Shown in pieces: positions 1,416 through 10,140 of a stretch of 10,259 nt of DNA. The first letter of the stretch is position 1. The number at the start of each line of letters is the position of its first letter. The DNA lies in assembly GCA_963766735.1 (NCBI GenBank), contig CAVYBU010000012.1, positions 1 to 10,259 on the forward strand, written 5' to 3'. Source of the DNA: an uncultured Chloroflexia bacterium (GTDB taxonomy: Bacteria > Chloroflexota > Limnocylindria > Limnocylindrales > CSP1-4). A program made the position numbers and the translations under genes. The notes under the pieces were generated by a model. That model was not told the DNA's origin and did no database searches. It was given only the letters and a program-made list of their open reading frames with translations.

Positions 1416-1853
1416 GTGCTCTATGACATCATCGCCACCTGTCCCGTCTGCACGGGTGAGCTTGCGGTGACGCGGCTGCGCTGCAGCAGTTGCGGGACGA
1501 TCATCGAGGGCGAGTTCGGGGTGGGGCGGTTCGCCAGCCTCACCCGCGAGCAGACGCAGGTCCTGGAGAGCTTCCTGCGCAGCCGCGGGAACCTCCGCGA
1601 CATGGAGCGGGAGCTCGGGATCAGCTATCCGACGGTTCGGGCCCGCGTGGAGGCGCTGATCCGCGCGCTCGGGTTCGGGCCCCGCGACGAGGCGGATCCG
1701 GCCCCGAGCGGCGGGGCCGATCCGGGCACCGTCCCCGCCGCAGATGACATCCAGGCCGCCCGGAGGGACATCCTGGAGCGCCTCGCCGCGCACGAGCTGA
1801 GCGCCGAGCAGGCCGCCGAGGCCATTCGCGCGCTGGGAGGGAACGCCCGATGA
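1416..1853 (+). CDS. DUF2089 family protein (zinc ribbon + HTH + C-terminal SHOCT-like), probable transcriptional regulator
   Basis: CPVC...RCSSC zinc ribbon, GNLRDMERELGISYPTVRARVE helix-turn-helix typical of DUF2089, and C-terminal RRDILERLAAHELSAEQAAEAI. Confidence 0.9.
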   Translation: MLYDIIATCPVCTGELAVTRLRCSSCGTIIEGEFGVGRFASLTREQTQVLESFLRSRGNLRDMERELGISYPTVRARVEALIRALGFGPRDEADPAPSGGADPGTVPAADDIQAARRDILERLAAHELSAEQAAEAIRALGGNAR

Positions 1854-2998
1854 CAGGGAACGCAGCCATCGTCTCCCACTCCCGCGAGCTGCCGCTCGAC
1901 CCGGGTGGGTCCGTGGAGATCGTCCTCGCGGCCAGCGACCTGAGGATCCGCGGGATCGACGGTGACCGGGTGGTCGTCAGGGCCCGGGACGGCAAGCCCC
2001 TGGACGATCGCGTCCACTTCGAGACCGCCCCCGGCGTCGTCCGCATCCTGGACGGCGAGGGCGGCTTCCGGGACGGCGAGGGCGGGTTCAAGCTGGGACC
2101 GGTCCAGGTGCGCATTCGTCGTTCCCCGGACCTCGACATCGAGCTTCCCCGGACCGCCTTGGTCTCGCTCCGCACGACGAGCGGTGACGTGGAAGCCCTC
2201 GGGATCGGCGGCGCCAGCCGATGGGCATCGGCGTCGGGTGACCTGCGGGTCTCCGTGTCTGCCGGTCCGGTGCACCTGGACACGATGTCGGGCGATGCCG
2301 TCCTCGAGTCCTCGGTCGATATCGCCCTGACGGCTCGGACGGTGTCCGGTGACCTGAAGGTCCGGGCGCCGCGCCTGGAGACCCTCGACGCCAGCACCAC
2401 CAGCGGGGACATCCGGGTGGAAGGGGACCTGGCCCAGGGCGCCCGCCACAGCATCAGCTCCGTCTCGGGCGACGTCGACATCATCACGGGCAGCCCGGTC
2501 CGTCTGGAGGCCCAGACCATCGCCGGCGACATCCGGGCGACCGGGCCGCACGCCACGGAGGGTGGCCAGGGACGCCGCACGCTGGTCGTGGGTAAGGGAT
2601 CCGTTCCGCTGGCCGTGCGCACGACCTCGGGCGATGTTCGGCTCCGGATCGTGAACGGAGCCGGGATCCTCGCCCCGCGGCCTCCGGTGGTCGCCGTGGC
2701 GCCGGCCGCGCCCGCATCGCAGGTCGCACCCGTACCGCAGCCTGCGCCGGAGGCGCCGGCCCCGCCCGAGCTCGCCGCCCAGCCGCCGGCGCTCGACCCA
2801 GCCAGTGAGCCCCGACCTCTCAACGAGGAGGACACCCAGGCCTGGAACGCCCCCGAGCCGGCGATCGACCGGCGCGAGGCCGATCGCCTGGACGTGCTCC
2901 GGGCCCTCGAGCGCGGGGACGTTGACATCGAGACGGCCTCTCGTCACCTCGAGGCGCTGGACGAAGCCGGCCCTCGCTCGTTCCGGGGGTGGTGCTGA
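1850..2998 (+). CDS. DUF4097 beta-strand repeat (toastrack / YvlB-LiaX-like) protein with C-terminal SHOCT-like motif
   Basis: Repeated T/S-x-SGD-V/L/I units (TTSGDV, SASGDL, TMSGDA, TVSGDL, TTSGDI, SVSGDV, TIAGDI, TTSGDV), a Pro/Ala linker, then RLDVLRALERGDVDIETASRHLEAL. ATGA overlap with the upstream gene. No signal peptide. Confidence 0.9.
   Translation: MTGNAAIVSHSRELPLDPGGSVEIVLAASDLRIRGIDGDRVVVRARDGKPLDDRVHFETAPGVVRILDGEGGFRDGEGGFKLGPVQVRIRRSPDLDIELPRTALVSLRTTSGDVEALGIGGASRWASASGDLRVSVSAGPVHLDTMSGDAVLESSVDIALTARTVSGDLKVRAPRLETLDASTTSGDIRVEGDLAQGARHSISSVSGDVDIITGSPVRLEAQTIAGDIRATGPHATEGGQGRRTLVVGKGSVPLAVRTTSGDVRLRIVNGAGILAPRPPVVAVAPAAPASQVAPVPQPAPEAPAPPELAAQPPALDPASEPRPLNEEDTQAWNAPEPAIDRREADRLDVLRALERGDVDIETASRHLEALDEAGPRSFRGWC
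2051..2092 (+). repeat. 21-bp imperfect tandem duplication encoding DGEGGFR-DGEGGFK
   Basis: GACGGCGAGGGCGGCTTCCGG followed by GACGGCGAGGGCGGGTTCAAG. Confidence 0.8.
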
Positions 2999-3426
2999 TG
3001 GCCACCGATCCGCTGGAGCAGGTCCTCAATCTCGTCGCCGACGGCACTGTCAGCGCCGAGGAAGCCGCTTCGATCCTTGCCGCGCTCGACGCCCGGTCCG
3101 GGCACACCGCGACGGCCGGCACCGGGGACACCCGGAAGGCCCCGCCCCGCGACGTGCCGCCCGCCGGCTCCAGCTACGACTCCCAGCCCGACGTCGACGC
3201 CGGCGGTCGAGCGGCCGTGTCGCTCCGGCTCGAGGTCAGCGAGGGCGGCCGCCAGATCGTGAACCTCCGCCTGCCGATCGCCGTCGGCCGCCTGGCCCTG
3301 GACCGCGTGCCCGGGCTTTCCGGGGACCAGGTTGACCGCGTCCGCGAGGCGCTCAACAGCGGCATGCGAGGTCCGGTCCTGGAGGTCGACGACGGCGACA
3401 ACGTGGTCCGGATCGTCCTGGAGTGA
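2998..3426 (+). CDS. Small protein with N-terminal SHOCT-like domain (type found in DUF2089/YvlB-like operons)
   Basis: ATG at 2998 overlaps the upstream TGA (TGATG). LEQVLNLVADGTVSAEEAASILAAL, a low-complexity linker, then LRLEVSEGGRQIVNLRLP...GPVLEVDDGDNVVRIVLE. Confidence 0.8.
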   Translation: MATDPLEQVLNLVADGTVSAEEAASILAALDARSGHTATAGTGDTRKAPPRDVPPAGSSYDSQPDVDAGGRAAVSLRLEVSEGGRQIVNLRLPIAVGRLALDRVPGLSGDQVDRVREALNSGMRGPVLEVDDGDNVVRIVLE

Positions 3427-4791
3427 ACTCTCTGGCGGGGGCCCGCTCCCTGCCGATGTGGCGGGCGTTCGGCGTCCGCGACTTCCGCCTCCTGTGGGCG
3501 AGCGAGGCCATCTCCGTCCTCGGCGACCAGTTCCACTACATCGCCCTCGCCTGGCTGGTGATCAGCCTCACCGGCTCCGGCCTCGCGCTCGGCGCTGTGC
3601 TGATCGCTGTCGCGCGTGCCCCGGGCAGTCCTCATCGTGCCGTTCGGCGTCCTCGCCGACCGCCGGCCGGCCAGGGGGTTGATGGTCGCCGCCCACGTTG
3701 CGCGGGGCGTCATCGTCGGCGTGATTGCCGCCCTGGCGATGAACGGCATGGCCTCCGTTCCTGCCCTGATGGTCCTCGGCGTCCTGTTCGGTGCCGCGGA
3801 CGCCCTGTACATGCCCGCCCAGCAGGCGTTCCTGCCGCGAACGGTGGAGGCGGATCGTCTGCCGTCGGCGAACGCGCTGCTGCAGGGCACCCTCCAGCTC
3901 TCATCGATGGTGGGCCCGCCGCTTGCCGGGATCGTCATCGCGATCGCCGGCACGGGGACAGCGTTCGCCGTTGACGCTGTCTCCTTCTTCGTCGCGGCCC
4001 TCGTCATCCTGCTCATGGGGCCGGCCACGGCTCGCCGGATGGCGGACCCAGCAGCCGGTGTGGCGGCGCCCGCTGGGACCGCGCAAGTTGCGACCGCGCC
4101 CGTTGAGACCGCACCTGTTGGGACCCCGCCCGCGCCAACGGGCCGGTCGTTCAGGGCGGAGCTGGTGGACGGCATTCGCTACGTCGCGGCCGACCCCGCG
4201 GTTCGCACCCTGCTGCTGCTGGCCATGGTGCTGAACTTCGCTCTCAACGGGCCCGCGGGTGTCGGGATTCCGTGGCTGGCGCAGCGGCGTTTTGACGCGG
4301 GTCCCATGGGTCTGGCTGCCATGGAGGCGGGCTGGGCCGCGGGCGCCCTCGTGGGGATCATGCTGGCCGGCAACGTGCGGCTTGAGCGCCAGGGCCGCGC
4401 GGTCGTCGCGGCCGTTGCCGTCGCCGGCGTGATGATGGTCGCCGTCGGATTGCTGGGCTCGCTGCCGGGCGTCGTCGTGGCACTCGCCGCGGCGGGCGCC
4501 ACGATCGGCTACGTGAACGTCGTCGCGGTCTCGTGGCTGCAGGGCCGCATCCAGCCCGCGATGGTCGGTCGGGTGATGAGCATCGTGATGCTCATGGGGT
4601 TCGGGATCTCGCCCCTGTCGCTGGGGCTATCGGGCGCCCTGATCGACATCGACGCGACCGCCCTGTTCGTCGGGGCCGGTGTGCTGACGGTCGCCAGCGC
4701 CGTGTTCTCGATCGCGGTGCGCCTGCCTGCGATGCTCGACGAGAGGCCCGCTCTCGCTCAGGTGGGTGCGGCGGGCGCGGCCGGATCCTAG
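3423..4791 (+). CDS. MFS transporter (MFS_3/DHA3, MefA/EntS-like), one extra base near 3615
   Basis: GTGA overlap with the upstream gene. N-terminal RDFRLLWASEAISVLGDQFHYIALAWLV joins VPRAVLIVPFGVLADRRPARGLMV (MFS motif A) if one base at about 3615 is removed; the span is 1369 nt = 456 codons + 1. Multiple TM helices and WLQGRIQPAMVGRVMS in the C-terminal half. Confidence 0.9.
4063..4125 (+). repeat. Degenerate 15-bp repeats in MFS central loop (AAPAG-TAQVA-TAPVE-TAPVG)
   Basis: ACCGCGCAAGTTGCG / ACCGCGCCCGTTGAG / ACCGCACCTGTTGGG at 4078, 4093 and 4108, with a weaker unit at 4063. Confidence 0.6.
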
Positions 4792-4832
4792 CCAGGCTCG
4801 CCGCATGACGGCGGACGACCCTCCGGCCGACC

Positions 4833-6141
4833 TCAGCCTGCGTTGGCCGCCGGAGTTTGCCCGGCGACGCCGGGCAGCGTCACGCTGAACCGGGCGCCGC
4901 CGCCGGCCGGGGAGTCGGCGCGGATGGTCCCGCCGTGTGCGTCGACGATCCGGCGCGCGATGGCGAGACCCAGGCCCGTGCCGCCGGACCCGTGCCGGGT
5001 CGTGCCCGACAGGCGGGTGAACGGCTCGAAGATCCGCTCCCGTTCGGCAGGTGGGATGCCAGGCCCTCGATCGTCCACCTCGATCACGGCATTCCCGTCG
5101 ACGCCTCGCGACTCTCACCGTGACGGTCTCCCCGGGCGGCGAGTGGTCGATCGCGTTGTCGATCAGGATGAGCAGCAGCTGCACCAGGCGGTAGCGGTCG
5201 ACGGTCGCCGGGACCGGCATGGGCGCGTCCATCTCGAGGCGCACGCTCCGCTCGGCGGCCAGCGCCGTGGCGCCGCGGACGGTGTCGGCGGCGAGCGCGG
5301 CCGCATCGAGACGAGCGGGCTCGACGGTCAGCCGGGTCTCGTCCCAGGCGGCCAGCTGGAGCAGCTCACCCACGAGGCCGCCCAACCGGTCCGCCTCGCC
5401 GATGATGTCGGTGAGCAGCGCATCCCCGTCGCCGGTGACCAGCGCCTCGCGCTCCAGCACCTCGGCGTTGGCGCGGATCAGCGCGGCGGGCGTGCGGAGC
5501 TCGTGCGAGGCATCCGCGACAAACCGGCGCTGGGCCTCGAAGCTCTTCCTGATCGGGACGAGCGCGCGGCCCGTGACCACGTAGGCGATCGCCGCCGCCC
5601 CGATCAGTCCCAGCGCGCCGACGATGAGGACGGCGAGCATGAGGCTCCGCGCCTGCTGGTCGTGGAGCGTCAGATCGAAGCCACCCTGGACGAACCCCGT
5701 CTGGGCGCCATCATGGGTGACGGGCATCGTGAGCACGCGCACCTCGACCCCGTCGGTCTCGATCGTCCGGACGTCCAGCCCGTCGCCGGCATCTCCGAGG
5801 GCTGCGGCGTCCGGGAGGCCCGGCAGCGTCTGGCCGGTCCGGTTGAGGAGGACCCGCCCTTCGGCATCGAGCACCAGCATGACGGTGTCGGCGACCGCCG
5901 GCGAATGCTCGCCGACCTCCTGCCGCTCCTCGCTGCCGGGCAGATCGCCATCGAGCGCCGCGACCTGTGCGCGGACTGCCACCTCGAGGGCCTGGTCCAG
6001 GTCCGCGTCGAGCGACGAGGTCGCCACGACCACGGTCGCCACCCCGACGCCAATGACCAGCAGGGTCAGGAGCGCCAGCGTTGTCGCAAACAGGCGAAGC
6101 CGCGTGCGACGCAGGAGTCGCTCGGTCGAGGTGGTCGCCAT
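4833..6141 (-). CDS. Membrane sensor histidine kinase (HisKA + HATPase_c), frameshift near 5100-5112
   Basis: Two TM helices flank an extracytoplasmic region. H-box FVADASHELRTP and N-box ILIDNAIDHS are in the 6141 frame; G1 DDRGPGI, F-box IFEPF and G2 GTGLGLAI are in the 4833-5087 frame. The span is 1309 nt = 436 codons + 1. Confidence 0.93.
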
Positions 6142-6143
6142 CG

Positions 6144-6818
6144 TCAGTCCGCGGCCTTGAGCGTGTAGCCCACGCCGCGCACGGTCTTCAGGCGTTCGGC
6201 CCGGTCCAGCTCGCCAAGCTTGCGACGCAGGTACGAGACGTAGAGGTCCACGACGTTGGAGTAGACGTCCGGCTCTGCCCCCCAGACCTGGTCCAGGATC
6301 TGCTGGCGCGTGACCACCTGGCCGGCATGGCGGATCAAGAAGCCCAACAGCGCGAACTCGCGCGCGGACAGGTCCACCGTTCGCTCGCCGACCTGCGCGA
6401 CGTGCCGGAGCTCGTCCAGCACGAGGTCGCCCGCCGCCATCCGCCCCTCTGCGGCGGGTGCCGGGCGTCGCCCGAGGGCGCGGATCCGGGCCAGCAGCTC
6501 GGAGAAGGCGAAGGGCTTGGCGAGGTAGTCATCCGCTCCCGCGTCCAGTCCGGTGACCCGATCGTCCACGGACCCGAGCGCGGTCAGGAGCAGCACAGGT
6601 GTGGCGATGCCCTTCGCCCGGAGCAGGCGCATGACGGAGATGCCGTCGATATCCGGCAGGCCGCGGTCCAGGACCACCACGTCGTACGGGGCGGCCTCCG
6701 CGAGGGCGATCGCGGCCACCCCGTCGGGGGCGATGTCCGCCACGTGGCGCTCGGCCACGAGGACCCGCTTGATCAGGGCCGCCATCTTCGGTTCGTCTTC
6801 GACCACGAGAACACGCAT
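6144..6818 (-). CDS. OmpR/PhoB-family response regulator (MprA/CusR-like)
   Basis: MRVLVVEDE, phosphoacceptor in VVLDRGLP, LLLTA, GADDYLAKPF, and winged-helix SNVVDLYVSYLRRKL...TVRGVGY. Confidence 0.96.
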   Translation of the reverse strand: MRVLVVEDEPKMAALIKRVLVAERHVADIAPDGVAAIALAEAAPYDVVVLDRGLPDIDGISVMRLLRAKGIATPVLLLTALGSVDDRVTGLDAGADDYLAKPFAFSELLARIRALGRRPAPAAEGRMAAGDLVLDELRHVAQVGERTVDLSAREFALLGFLIRHAGQVVTRQQILDQVWGAEPDVYSNVVDLYVSYLRRKLGELDRAERLKTVRGVGYTLKAAD

Positions 6819-6868
6819 CGCGCCGCATTGTGGGGGCGGCGGGCGTGTTGGTCGAGGGCCGGGGGCCT

Positions 6869-6905
6869 TCTCTGTGGAAACTCACATCCGGGACTCACGG
6901 CCGGG
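6869..6905. promoter_or_regulatory. Candidate response-regulator binding repeats in divergent intergenic region
   Basis: TCTCTG (6869)-N5-ACTCAC (6880)-N7-ACTCAC (6893); the last two extend to ACTCACATCCGGG / ACTCACGGCCGGG. Confidence 0.5.
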
Positions 6906-6966
6906 TGGGTGATCCAGTTCGACAGTGGGGGAGCACAAAGCCGCTCAACCCCGGGAGAACGACCTC

Positions 6967-7251
6967 ATGATCCACCGAACTGCCATCTTCGTCGCGTCGC
7001 TGGCCTCCGCCTTCGCACTCGTCGTCGGCCTCGTCGTCGCCGGCTTCGCACCGTCGGCCGCCCCCATCGCGGCGGAGCCCGTGTCCGCTCCCGTCGTCGC
7101 TCCGACCGACGTGCCCCCGCCCGTCGTCCAGGTCGACACCGTCTACGTTGCGCCGGCCGCCAAGCCCCAGGACATCGTCGTCACCAAGGTCGTCAAGACA
7201 ACCCGCAGCGGCGGCGACGACGAGAACGAGCACGAAGGATCGGACGACTGA
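6967..7251 (+). CDS. Small membrane-anchored/secreted hypothetical protein (94 aa) with acidic tail
   Basis: GGGAG RBS near 6953-6957 and ATG at 6967. Hydrophobic N-terminus IFVASLASAFALVVGLVVAGFA, Pro/Val-rich body, ends TTRSGGDDENEHEGSDD. High GC at third codon positions. Confidence 0.8.
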   Translation: MIHRTAIFVASLASAFALVVGLVVAGFAPSAAPIAAEPVSAPVVAPTDVPPPVVQVDTVYVAPAAKPQDIVVTKVVKTTRSGGDDENEHEGSDD

Positions 7252-7661
7252 TGTCTGACCACCACCCGAATCGCCCCATGCCTCCCACCAGCACAGACGC
7301 GGGCCTGCGATCAACCCCGCCGGCCCGCGGCGCCGCCCCCATCGGCGGTGCCGGGGCACCGCGTCCGCATCGCGCCAGGCCGGATCCCCGGCCCATGCGG
7401 TTCGCCATCGGCATGGCGGGCCTCGCGTCGGTGACTGCCCTCCTGACGGCGATGCTGCCGTCCGTCACGCCGTCCCAGGTCGTGGTTGTCGACGCCGCGG
7501 ACAGCACCACTGCCCTCGCCCCGAAGCCGTCCGTGGTCCACGTCACCAGGACGGTGGTTCTCCAGCCCGGCCAGACAGCCCCGCCGAACTCCTCGGTCGT
7601 GGTCCAGCCGAACCCGACCCCGCGGATCGTGGTCAAGACCGTCACCAAGCAGTCCGGCTAG
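7251..7661 (+). CDS. Small single-pass membrane hypothetical protein (136 aa)
   Basis: ATG at 7251 overlaps the upstream TGA (TGATG); this is the real part of ORF 6081..7661. Basic Pro-rich N-terminus, hydrophobic FAIGMAGLASVTALLTAML, Pro/Val/Thr-rich C-terminus ending IVVKTVTKQSG, stop 2 nt before apbE. Confidence 0.78.
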   Translation: MSDHHPNRPMPPTSTDAGLRSTPPARGAAPIGGAGAPRPHRARPDPRPMRFAIGMAGLASVTALLTAMLPSVTPSQVVVVDAADSTTALAPKPSVVHVTRTVVLQPGQTAPPNSSVVVQPNPTPRIVVKTVTKQSG

Positions 7662-7663
7662 CC

Positions 7664-8587
7664 ATGACTTCCACGACGACACCCGTGAGCATCGATGCCC
7701 GCCGCCCCATGATGGGCGGGACGGTCGCCGTGCAGATCCTCGACGACACGGACGCGGTCCGCCTCGAGCGGGAGGCAGTGCGCGTCCTGGACCGCATCGA
7801 GGCCTGGGCCGCGCGCCTGACCCGGTTCTCGCCTGATTCCGAGCTGATGCGCCTCAACGCGGCGACGACGCTGCTGGTGCCCATCGGGCCCACGCTGACC
7901 GCCGCCCTCGACTGGGCGCGGATGGCCGAGGGGATGACCGACGGCCTGGTCGACGCGTCGCTGCTTGACGAGCGCCTGGCTGCCGAGGCCGGCCTCGATC
8001 CGGCGGCCCCCATCAAGGCCGGTCGCCGCTGGTCGCTCCGCCGCACCGCCCGCGGCGCCGCCGTCGAGCGGGAGCCCGGCGTCCGGTTCGATCTCGGCGG
8101 CGTCGCCAAGGGCTGGCTCGCGGATCGCGCGCTCGCGATCACACCCGGCCGATCGGCTCTGGTCGACGGCGATGGAGACGTGGCGATCCGCGTTGCGCCC
8201 GGCGACACGTGGGCCATCGGTATTGGCGATCCCCGCGAGCCCGGCACGCTGCTTGGCGCCGTCAACCTCGGTGCCGACGGCGATGCGACGCGTGAGTGGG
8301 GGATCGCGACCTCGGGCACGAGCGTCCACCGCTGGACTCACAGCGGCAGCGATGCCCACCATCTCATCGACCCGCGAACGAGGCGCCCCGCCGCGACGGA
8401 CGTGATCCAGGCGACGGTGCTGGCCCACTCGGCGCGCGTGGCGGAGATCTTCGCCAAGACCGCCGTGATCGCCGGCACGGACCGCGCGTTCGGCGTCCTT
8501 GACCACCCCGGAGTCCTCGGGGTCCTCCTCCTCACCGGGCGCGGCGAGCTCCGCGCGACCCCAGGGATGGTGCGATGGCTGCAGTGA
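7664..8587 (+). CDS. apbE: FAD:protein FMN transferase (ApbE family)
   Basis: MMGGT, LTRFSPDSELMRLN, FDLGGVAKGWLAD, VDGDGDV, WAIGIGDP, IATSG, HHLIDPRT and QATV are ApbE hallmark motifs in the expected order. Confidence 0.95.
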   Translation: MTSTTTPVSIDARRPMMGGTVAVQILDDTDAVRLEREAVRVLDRIEAWAARLTRFSPDSELMRLNAATTLLVPIGPTLTAALDWARMAEGMTDGLVDASLLDERLAAEAGLDPAAPIKAGRRWSLRRTARGAAVEREPGVRFDLGGVAKGWLADRALAITPGRSALVDGDGDVAIRVAPGDTWAIGIGDPREPGTLLGAVNLGADGDATREWGIATSGTSVHRWTHSGSDAHHLIDPRTRRPAATDVIQATVLAHSARVAEIFAKTAVIAGTDRAFGVLDHPGVLGVLLLTGRGELRATPGMVRWLQ

Positions 8588-9406
8588 AGTTCCGCGGGCT
8601 CGACGCCCGCACCGGGCCGGCTCGCTGGGGCCTCGCGGCTGTGGCGATCGGGATCGTCGTGGGCGTGACCGCACCCGCGGCGGCCCGGGGTCTCGGGTTG
8701 GTCCTGGAGGCGAACCCCCAGGGCCTGGTCTGGCTGTTCGAGCGGCTGTTCGCCTGGCTCGCCTACATGGCCATGGCAGGCTCCGTGATCTACGGGCTGC
8801 TGCTGTCGACCAAGATCCTTGACGTCATCGCGCACCGCCCGATCAGCTTCTCGTCTGCACCAGGACCTGGCTGCGTTCGGGCTGGGCCTGGCCGGTATCC
8901 ACGGGATGCTGCTGGGGCTGGACCACACCGTCCCGTTCACCTTCGCCCAGATCCTCGTTCCCGGACTGGCCCCGCACGCGCCGGTGGCGGTGGCCTTTGG
9001 CCAGGTGGCCCTGTACCTGATGGCGGCGGTGACCACCAGCTTCTACCTGCGCAAGCGCATCGGGCAGCGGGCATGGCGGACGTTCCACTACGTGACGTTC
9101 CTAGCGTTTGCCGGCGCCACCATTCACGGCATCGCGGCAGGCTCGGACAGCAACGCGCCCTGGGCCGAGGCGATCTACCTTACCTCCGCCGTGCTCGTGC
9201 TGTTCCTGCTCACCTACAGGATCGGGATGTCCGTCGTGGCCCGCGGCGAAAGCAGCGCCCGCGTGGCGAGCGCGCTTGCGGAGGCACGAGCCGGTGTGCC
9301 GGCTCGACACGGGACCGGTTCGCAGGATGCCGGCGGCCCGCCTGCGCAACCCCGCCCGATCTCGGTCCGCGACGGCGTACGCCTGCGCCGGAACCCCGTG
9401 GCCTGA
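8584..9406 (+). CDS. Ferric-reductase-like transmembrane (MsrQ-like) heme protein, one extra base near 8854
   Basis: GTG at 8584 overlaps the apbE TGA. ...IAHRPISFS joins LHQDLAAFGLGLAGIHGMLL...WRTFHYVTFLAFAGATIHGIAAGSDS after removing one base; the span is 823 nt = 274 codons + 1. Four His in two pairs as in this family. No FAD/NAD-binding domain. Confidence 0.87.
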
Positions 9407-9462: not shown

Positions 9463-10140
9463 CTACCCTTGCTCAGGTCCAAGGATCGCCGTGAGGACCG
9501 ACGCGAAGTCGCCGTCGGTCGTCACCGATAGCTGGTACCACTTCTCGTGCGCCGAGTCCCACCAGAATGCCTCGGACGCGAGGCCGACATCGGCAGACGG
9601 ATCGGCCGGAACCCGGACGAACACCTCGAGACCATGGCGTTGCTGTGTGGTGCGGATCCAGTACGGGTTCGGCGAGTGGTCGAGGACCTCGTCCGACGGA
9701 AGGACGTCGTCGATCTGCGCGCCGAATTGCTGCTCGATGGGATCGAGGCCCGGGATCGCCTGACCCTCGGTCAGGGTGACCGCGAGCGACCCGATCCAGT
9801 CCCCGTCGATCAAGATCGTGCCTTCGAGCGACCCGCCCTCGGCGACCTGGTAGTCATCGCCTCGGTCAGCCTCGATCACCTCTCCGTCCTTGTTGGTCAC
9901 GGTTGAGGTTGACGTTCCGCTGTAGAGCAGCCAGTAGGGATCGTCGATCGCTGGGGCACCGACGTGCGCGGGCCGGTTCGGCACGGCGCTCGGGGCGGGG
10001 GTCGGTGCCATAGTCGCCGGGGAGGCCGACTGATCGACTGGCGAGGGGGACGCTGCGGGCGTCACCGGCGGCGTCACGGGCGTCGTGGTGCATGCCGCAA
10101 GCACGAGGAGGGGCGGGAGCAGGGCGAGACGCCAGCGCAC
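9463..10140 (-). CDS. Putative lipoprotein of unknown function
   Basis: GGAGG RBS 5 nt before the GTG. MRWR + hydrophobic stretch + lipobox LAA-C, a Pro/Thr/Ala linker, then an acidic globular-looking domain. Confidence 0.8.
   Translation of the reverse strand: MRWRLALLPPLLVLAACTTTPVTPPVTPAASPSPVDQSASPATMAPTPAPSAVPNRPAHVGAPAIDDPYWLLYSGTSTSTVTNKDGEVIEADRGDDYQVAEGGSLEGTILIDGDWIGSLAVTLTEGQAIPGLDPIEQQFGAQIDDVLPSDEVLDHSPNPYWIRTTQQRHGLEVFVRVPADPSADVGLASEAFWWDSAHEKWYQLSVTTDGDFASVLTAILGPEQG

Follow-up and report, generated by a model that had tools for sequence, protein, structure and literature searches.

Covalent attachment of FMN by ApbE wires extracytosolic redox enzymes (PMC8238504), and the substrate classes published for ApbE comprise FMN-bind, NqrB/RnfD, DUF2271, DUF3570, flavodoxin_4 and FMN reductase proteins (PMC8238504; 10.1101/2024.03.13.584918). 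Among the arrangements described, the closest to the one treated here are the MsrQ-like flavinylation clusters (Meheust et al. 2021, PMC8238504), in which apbE lies beside a gene for a six-helix, two-heme ferric-reductase-like protein, transmembrane electron transfer to an extracytosolic flavin has been proposed, and a link to iron-uptake genes is frequent. Their definition calls for a substrate gene of the FMN_bind, DUF2271 or DUF3570 type and for a target gene that encodes a signal peptide or lipidation site; the same survey dropped clusters without signal peptides or export signals, and about 4% of its apbE genomes lacked any substrate (PMC8238504). Here, we analyze a 10,259-base stretch of DNA (the window), the entire contig CAVYBU010000012.1 (C12) of an uncultured Chloroflexia bacterium of the order Limnocylindrales, which carries an operon for two small membrane proteins (A and B), an ApbE (ApbE1) and a ferric-reductase-like membrane protein (FRD1). 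The operon departs from the definition of the MsrQ-like clusters in that A and B belong to no Pfam family and ApbE1 is leaderless, and the main text describing those clusters mentions no tail proteins of the A and B kind. On balance, B is probably a carrier that has no domain of its own, bears flavin at its C terminus and serves the export of electrons from heme to flavin, probably for metal reduction.

This reading starts from the architecture of B, in which an Arg/Pro-rich cytoplasmic N terminus with a conserved R-x-[RK]-P-D-P-N-P-x-R motif is followed by one membrane helix and an extended, Pro-rich ectodomain with the conserved segments HVT..V.L.PGQTAPP and PTPRV. The window copy ends in T-K-Q-S-G, terminating at a TAG codon where its relatives encode Lys-Pro. 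The tail T-[RK]-Q-S-G plus zero to two residues closes 95 of the 97 B homologues in the protein collection, none of which is named, and its Thr, Gln, Ser and Gly are invariant in the alignments. We regard Ser135 as the candidate flavin acceptor and the tail as probably an undescribed, fold-less site of covalent flavin attachment that passes electrons out of the cell; modeled alone with AlphaFold2 (AF2), B yields its membrane helix only (pTM, 0.20). Protein A begins with MIHR and continues with one membrane helix, a Pro-rich linker, strands with the conserved residues QVDTVY and VT, and an acidic tail ending ...SGGDDENEHEGSDD. Across the alignment this tail is acidic, often contains His and usually ends in DD, with no conserved Ser or Thr; the protein collection holds 26 homologues of A including itself, again none named. 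Only B, and not A, looks like a flavin carrier, because the tail of A is acidic or His-rich without a conserved Ser or Thr, while that of B matches the tail of the paralogous protein B2 (see below). Neither A nor B falls into a Pfam or NCBIfam family, no folded acceptor domain among the known ApbE-substrate folds was found in them, and the nearest clusters in the ESM Atlas are all annotated as “hypothetical protein,” in keeping with a preliminary description, made from the letters of the window, that had introduced them as unknown small membrane proteins. That description had also reported no [S/T]GA[S/T] motif in either protein. The canonical motif is indeed absent from both sequences, and Gly-Ala precedes the Ser in none of the 95 anchored B homologues, but the degenerate motif at the C terminus of B had been overlooked.

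A paralogous set of genes (module 2, as opposed to module 1 in the window) lies on contig C3 (locus L027, 7584-14218, minus strand) in the order ZnuC-ZnuB-Fur-ZnuA-FRD2-A2-B2-ApbE2. ApbE2, which is leaderless as well, is encoded by the only apbE gene of the genome besides that of ApbE1, and FRD2-A2-B2-ApbE2 stand directly after the ZnuC-ZnuB-Fur-ZnuA-type genes on the same strand, an order kept in 11 of 11 genus loci. These neighbors make up a Mn/Zn/Fe-type ABC importer, whose substrate-binding protein is nearest to MntC/AztC at a score below the cut-off, with a Fur-family regulator alongside. A2 has a helix, a coiled coil and the end ...REHDDDD, and B2 has an Arg/Pro-rich N terminus, a helix, a coiled coil and the end ...TKATTAASGG. 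Among the matches listed, 119 of 120 B2 homologues end in [TS]-x-[A/G]-S-[G/A] plus zero to two residues, and 74 of these 119 have Gly at position -2, which amounts to a canonical [S/T]GA[S/T] at the extreme C terminus. Residue by residue, T-K-Q-S-G of B corresponds to T-K-A-S-G of B2. The pattern [ST].[AQ]SG.{0,3}, picked after inspection of the tails, ends 34 of the 24,899 genomic open frames of at least 80 codons, and two of these directly precede the only two apbE genes. A putative conserved gene after ApbE2 (“x602”) was discarded as an antisense shadow of a PfkB kinase and its neighbors.

Conservation of A and B immediately upstream of apbE and FRD, which the preliminary description had named as the check on its proposal, is borne out within the genus, in a second family and, by comparable pairs, in other phyla. 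A, B, ApbE and FRD occur in the same order in 15 of 15 orthologous genus loci found by tblastn (one of them, L017, stops before FRD), with identities of 35-67% for A and 40-66% for B. In the second family of the order (f2, with genomes of 1.1 Mb), locus L020 encodes an A-like protein ending ...EHEEGEGSDD and a B-like protein ending ...ATKPSGAP, followed by ApbE and FRD; both were missed by tblastn and recognized by inspecting the locus. Since a search with the B alignment matched just 9 of 401 genomes of the phylum, all from family f1, the B sequence family is narrow, but the B-type architecture is not. Through the ApbE alignment, we gathered 80 ApbE loci from genomes of other species, comprising Chloroflexota of several classes, Gaiellaceae, Acidimicrobiia, a Streptomyces and a few others. 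FRD is directly downstream of apbE in 61 of them, and 51 of the 61 have a membrane open reading frame (ORF) ending just upstream. Of these 51 ORFs, 45 close with a short Ser-containing tail that falls into one of several recurring classes, namely ..QSG.. or ..xSG.. (23), [ST][RKH][STA]S (10), [ST][GSR]GS (5), ..SSR (4) and [HYS]VS (3); the other six showed none or were mis-picked, the automatic choice of the upstream ORF being wrong for at least L059 and L096. No Pfam family was found in 47 of the 48 upstream ORFs scanned (L059, L096 and L122 being the 3 of 51 omitted), the exception being an FNR-like reductase. At least 29 loci also have, farther along the upstream side, an anchored ORF whose tail is acidic and in many cases rich in His, and by a crude measure none of the 61 FRD-linked ApbE proteins has a 12-residue hydrophobic window of 2.5 or above. 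Ser-tailed, Pfam-less membrane proteins ahead of a leaderless ApbE and an FRD occur in Chloroflexota and Actinomycetota, and the FRD profile finds a match in 182 of the 401 Chloroflexota genomes sampled, a tally that takes in four unpublished ones (G266, G078, G310 and G212). At the Ktedonobacteria locus L093 (1913-3487), the gene upstream of apbE and FRD encodes an FNR-like reductase (FAD/NAD/2Fe-2S) that might donate electrons to the FRD class from the cytosol.

ApbE1 is by sequence a clear member of the FAD:protein FMN transferase family, with FMN transfer itself predicted: it matches PF02424 with 122.9 bits (cut-off, 25.6; E value, 2.2e-35) over profile positions 1-259 of 266 and, compared with the solved ApbE/Ftp chains 1vrm and 4xdt, keeps the motifs DLGGVAKGW, ATSG and HHLIDPRT, which are invariant in the orthologue alignment. 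Among these motifs lie what we take to be the catalytic residues. The signal peptide or lipobox typical of characterized periplasmic ApbE proteins is missing; the domain begins 16 residues in, with no hydrophobic stretch before it and no membrane helix, and the N termini of 15 orthologues likewise lack a hydrophobic stretch. FRD1 is predicted, from its residue pattern and a structural model, to be a six-helix, two-heme cytochrome b that belongs to the NOX/STEAP/MsrQ superfamily and lacks a dehydrogenase domain. Against Pfam Ferric_reduct (PF01794; cut-off, 28), the window piece scores 16.4 bits, two intact orthologues score 16.0 and 18.1, three give no match and the f2 orthologue scores 26.8, so that three of six orthologues match at all and none above the cut-off. 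The four His residues (H2/H16 and H78/H91 of the frame-2 part) are spaced H-x13-H and H-x12-H, which we equate with the spacing of NOX, and are invariant in 13 sequences (H95, H109, H171 and H184 of the alignment), on helices 3 and 5. A Pfam scan of the window gene and its orthologues gave no match to an FAD/NAD domain, and conservation does not extend to the C-terminal tail; the preliminary description of a four-His ferric-reductase-like protein without a cytosolic FAD/NAD domain was correct in both respects. Compared with the PDB, the FRD profile finds SpNOX (E value, 0.0015). An AF2 model of an intact orthologue (pLDDT, 75.8) has six long helices, and the top 10 Foldseek matches of this model are all SpNOX, STEAP or NOX5 chains at E values of 0.016-0.19, none at 0.001 or better. 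VIA-align ranks STEAP1 (Z, 13.5; root mean square deviation, 3.8 Å over 172 residues), STEAP4 (13.5), STEAP2 and SpNOX (13.3; 21% identity) best, with Z scores of 13.3-13.5 and deviations of 3.3-3.8 Å over 154-176 residues, although helical bundles may reach a Z of about 13-14 through arrangement alone. STEAP metalloreductases and the NOX enzymes of bacteria and eukaryotes differ from the operon in having a cytosolic FAD/NADPH domain, whereas the flavin proposed here would sit outside, on a separate tail protein. Another likeness is to Escherichia coli MsrPQ, whose MsrQ (YedZ) is a ferric-reductase-like heme b subunit without a dehydrogenase domain and is thought to be fed by quinol (PMC8238504). 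That system has the molybdoenzyme MsrP as partner, whereas module 1 and module 2 contain no such gene; as noted earlier for the window, MsrP is missing; Oxidored_molyb matches occur neither on C12 nor around module 2, and the assembly has two elsewhere (contigs C2 and C21). We know of no ApbE in MsrPQ.

The absence of a canonical flavinylation substrate, claimed beforehand from the window, extends to the present assembly (93.85% complete), which contains no FMN_bind, no DUF2271 and no NqrB/RnfD; a search for DUF3570 was silent in its control genomes and so says nothing on the assembly. A canonical FMN_bind protein elsewhere in the genome, which the preliminary description had given as grounds for abandoning its proposal, does exist in relatives, namely in 18 of 41 and, within the genus, in 11 of 24. 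In the six FMN_bind loci examined (L141, 4155-7019, of genome G006; L137 to L140; and L142), it is always part of a third module with a NOX-type FRD (479 residues, with FAD/NAD domains), a signal-peptide FMN_bind protein (DGISGATYTS) and a leaderless ApbE3 of its own. Since an ApbE3 of its own stands next to the FMN_bind of the relatives, that protein fails to account for ApbE1 or ApbE2, and tblastn found no homologue of the third-module FMN_bind or ApbE3 in the present genome. Within the same lineage, the third module and our operon share a heme membrane protein, a flavin acceptor (proposed, in our case) and an ApbE without signal peptide; they differ in that the third module has a folded FMN_bind acceptor with a canonical motif, an FRD with its own NAD(P)H domain and no A-type protein.

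We then modeled FRD, A and B of the relative G006 as three chains, each with its own alignment and with B as the scored partner. The model scores 0.80 (runs: 0.80, 0.50 and 0.80) versus 0.04 for the best of three controls; among solved complexes, 116 of 157 attain the mark set for this score, and among mismatched pairs 2 of 215 do, a calibration on pairs with other alignments that holds only roughly here. The runs share at least 87% of their contacts, and the pLDDT of the partner is at least 75. In the model, B residues 33-64 (juxtamembrane motif and helix) contact FRD helices 1-3, while B 83-125 contacts A 48-77, with the least error where A 54-60 (QVDTVY) and B 87-94 (HVT..V.L) form an intermolecular β-sheet. 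The interface also takes in FRD 190-196, an outer loop that follows the second His in helix 5, and the acidic tail of A lies outside it. The model thus speaks for a three-subunit complex of FRD, A and B without demonstrating it. In place of the free flexible stalks pictured beforehand, it pairs the ectodomains of A and B in a shared β-sheet on FRD.

How such a complex might work can be put in a few steps. Electrons would enter from the quinol pool, the presumed donor, and reach the FRD1 hemes. B would be signal-anchored, its helix packing on FRD1 and its ectodomain sharing a β-sheet with A on what should be the outer face, and ApbE would move FMN from FAD onto Ser135 of T-[RK]-Q-S-G, read as a degenerate [S/T]GA[S/T]. 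With a leaderless ApbE and a cytoplasmic supply of FAD, it is simplest to suppose that flavinylation comes before export; the tail of B would be modified in the cytoplasm and then threaded out, as its lack of a fold would permit. FMN tethered to B near the outer heme would pass electrons to an outside acceptor, probably a cation bound by the free acidic or His-rich tail of A, and this extracellular metal reduction would serve uptake or homeostasis. Metal reduction is proposed because a CopR/RppA-like regulatory pair adjoins module 1, and a Fur-family regulator and a Mn/Zn/Fe-type ABC importer adjoin module 2. Tat export of B was considered and rejected, as a single invariant Arg and no twin-arginine stands before its helix; A2 carries RR-A-[IM]-V-L. 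The Flavin-tag (Tong, Fraaije and coworkers, PMC9400968) offers a parallel, in which a Vibrio cholerae ApbE lacking its signal peptide attaches flavin, in the cytoplasm of E. coli, to a 12-residue tag fused to one or the other end of unrelated proteins, so that a short unstructured peptide suffices, at the C terminus included. The tag is synthetic, with a canonical DGLSGAT core and a Thr acceptor, whereas the natural tails comprise 5-7 residues with a Ser acceptor and no upstream Asp. It is tempting to speculate that all of this comes together as a three-subunit extracellular metal reductase, in which the unfolded anchored tail, flavinylated in the cytoplasm by a leaderless ApbE, is exported to the outer heme of a minimal NOX/STEAP-like cytochrome while the acidic/His tail of the partner holds the metal, and we offer this fuller scheme tentatively. 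The minimal transmembrane electron-transfer unit of the preliminary description would be retained with B as its flavin carrier, but not with A.

Several points weigh against this interpretation. Gene content, conservation, sequence motifs and fold are established, whereas the flavinylation of B, the topology and the electron donor and acceptor are inferred. The B tail is not [S/T]GA[S/T], having Gln for Ala and Lys or Arg for Gly, and the Asp that we take to be usual upstream of the ApbE motif is missing. Ser/Gly/Thr-rich ends are common in low-complexity proteins of high GC, and the tail classes in other phyla were drawn post hoc. The profiles of B and B2 show no detectable homology (hhalign probability, 0.4%), so that the equivalence of their tails rests on position and architecture and not on common descent. 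ApbE has no signal peptide, yet the positive-inside rule puts the B tail outside (in 42 of 51 B-type ORFs, the N-terminal flank carries the more positive charge), and an already flavinylated tail would have to be exported; this topological objection is softened by the leaderless ApbE3 that adjoins a signal-peptide FMN_bind in six of six loci, since this lineage commonly has a leaderless ApbE next to a substrate that is exported. The complex score expresses the confidence of the model, not binding, its least-error pairs are between A and B, and the closeness of the orthologous Ser125 to the outer heme is presumed. Metal reduction rests solely on gene neighborhood and sub-threshold family matches, and the FRD gene is broken in the present assembly.

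One could instead see A and B as structural or assembly subunits of the cytochrome, their tails serving complex contacts and the target of ApbE lying elsewhere, in FRD itself or in another protein. The extensive A-B and B-FRD contacts of the model (B 111-125 among them), the noncanonical tail of B, the possibility that a substrate is missing from an incomplete assembly, and the FMN_bind protein of 11 genus relatives all fit this account. However, that FMN_bind protein comes with its own ApbE3 and neither was found here, FRD has no conserved [S/T]GA[S/T] and an unconserved cytoplasmic tail, and B2 ends canonically in many homologues, with a B-type gene directly preceding both apbE genes; we rate this account as quite unlikely. 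ApbE might also be a flavin-trafficking enzyme, an FAD pyrophosphatase or chaperone that loads noncovalent FMN onto the cytochrome, with no protein flavinylated at all. YedZ/MsrQ is reported to bind FMN, FRD has no flavin domain, and ApbE, being leaderless, should reside in the cytoplasm, where FAD is. Members of the ApbE/Ftp family do vary between FAD pyrophosphatase and FMN transferase activity (PMC4767422), but trafficking would leave unexplained the invariant Ser-Gly tails upstream of both apbE genes and the [ST]GAS of B2, and we hold it to be very improbable. Hardly more credible is that the C-terminal Ser tail signals for another process, such as O-glycosylation, phosphorylation, proteolytic maturation or envelope attachment, and neighbors apbE through shared membership in a complex: the Pro/Thr/Ser-rich ectodomains do resemble glycosylated linkers, and the tails differ between lineages (..QSGKP, ..TRSS, ..SSR and ..SGGS) beyond any described ApbE motif, but the genus module encodes no other modifying enzyme, and ApbE is the sole enzyme conserved with the tail across phyla.

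Finally, module 1 may be a decaying pseudogene cluster whose FRD frameshift is real and whose operon is inactive, which we consider unlikely. The preliminary description of four tightly coupled genes holds for the coordinates of A, B and ApbE and for all three junctions, namely a TGATG at 7249-7253 (1-nucleotide overlap), a 2-nucleotide gap (7662-7663) and a GTGA at 8584-8587, but the fourth gene is not one open frame here. Nor is its start likely to be the GTG at 8584, although that sequence is present; the ATG at 8575, giving a 13-nucleotide overlap with apbE, is likelier, because MAAVKFRG/MAGV.YRG is kept in all 14 orthologues that include that part. Besides the one-base insertion in FRD1, a B shortened by two residues at TAG, a one-base insertion in a transporter gene and a split kinase gene would be signs of decay. 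Against this, three indel-type breaks within 10 kb of otherwise well-conserved genes resemble assembly error, the close relatives are long-read metagenome-assembled genomes, and FRD1 is a single frame in 14 of 14 genus orthologues spanning both halves. The extra base is also absent from four of four bridging metagenome contigs (runs X1-X4); these, at 94-98% identity, stem from related populations and not from the source strain, and so they cannot decide whether it is an assembly error. Because the transporter insertion and the split ATPase domain of the kinase are present as well, assembly error is the likelier cause of the FRD1 frameshift.

Table 1. Features of the window, with positions counted from its first base
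Feature	Position	Strand	Remarks
Window (entire contig C12)	1..10259		10,259 bases; assembly of 3.6 Mb in 35 contigs, 93.85% complete, contamination 4.22%
Row of DUF2089 zinc-ribbon/helix-turn-helix (HTH), DUF4097 “toastrack” and SHOCT-like proteins	1416..3426		tightly spaced
MFS transporter gene	3423..4791		in two frames; one-base insertion near 3613 versus three relatives
Sensor histidine kinase of the response-regulator pair	4627..6141	-	ATPase domain (HATPase_c) in two frames, second piece 4833-5087
OmpR-type response regulator	6144..6818	-	Pfam; divergent neighbor of gene A
Divergent intergenic region, response regulator/gene A	6819..6966	+	conserved blocks GGTCGAGGGC and TCTGTG-N7-TC-CAT, then GGAG-type ribosome site
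Gene A	6967..7251	+	94 residues; ORF
Gene B	7251..7661	+	136 residues; ORF
ApbE1	7664..8587	+	307 residues; PF02424
FRD1 N-terminal part, frame 1	8575..8853	+	cytoplasmic MAAVKFRG..RT..RWGL, helices 1-2, loop ..AHRPISF
One-base insertion breaking FRD1	8853..8855	+	TCG-T-CTG; DNA alignment with L004/L005/L006/L008
FRD1 C-terminal part, frame 2	8855..9406	+	helices 3-6, four His (LHQDL..GIHG; TFHYV..TIHG), cytoplasmic tail unconserved
Lipoprotein-like gene (LLVLAAC)	9463..10140	-	225 residues; convergent; no Pfam or NCBIfam family

The surroundings of the operon (Table 1) have a G+C content of about 72% across the window. Synteny of the operon with the divergent response regulator and kinase holds in all nine larger genus loci, and the best NCBIfam rows of the regulator, RppA (217 bits; cut-off, 250) and CztR/SilR/CopR (201 bits; cut-off, 279), both lie below the cut-off. 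The divided ATPase domain of the kinase is the third apparent indel within 10 kb; blastn against relatives gave no match there, so that DNA alignment offers no confirmation of this break. Most genus loci also keep the row of DUF2089, DUF4097 and SHOCT-like genes in synteny with the MFS gene and with the regulator and kinase. The blocks in the divergent intergenic region are conserved in an alignment of eight genus loci and may act as operator or promoter, possibly as a site for the regulator; a consensus scan found no σ70-like promoter and no terminator. Within the same assembly, the contig pairs C4/C32, C3/C24, C8/C11 and C3/C16 have identical ORF ends, whose recurrence suggests duplicated contigs or a mixture of strains.

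A full-text literature search, with most subscription journals and supplements outside its scope, found no account of C-terminal tail acceptors for ApbE. For a large share of the apbE genomes without a substrate, the module suggests a concrete solution, namely an acceptor of five residues at the C terminus of an anchored protein that lacks a fold. If this is true, a new class of ApbE substrates would be defined by a C-terminal [ST]-x-x-S motif and not by a fold, the sequence rules of ApbE would be wider, flavinylation may precede export, and protein engineering would gain a minimal natural flavin tag. Such a tag would be a widespread solution, in Chloroflexota and Actinomycetota, for monoderm cells that are unable to keep FAD outside, and would point, in abundant bacteria of soil and fresh water, to what is probably a system for reducing metals.

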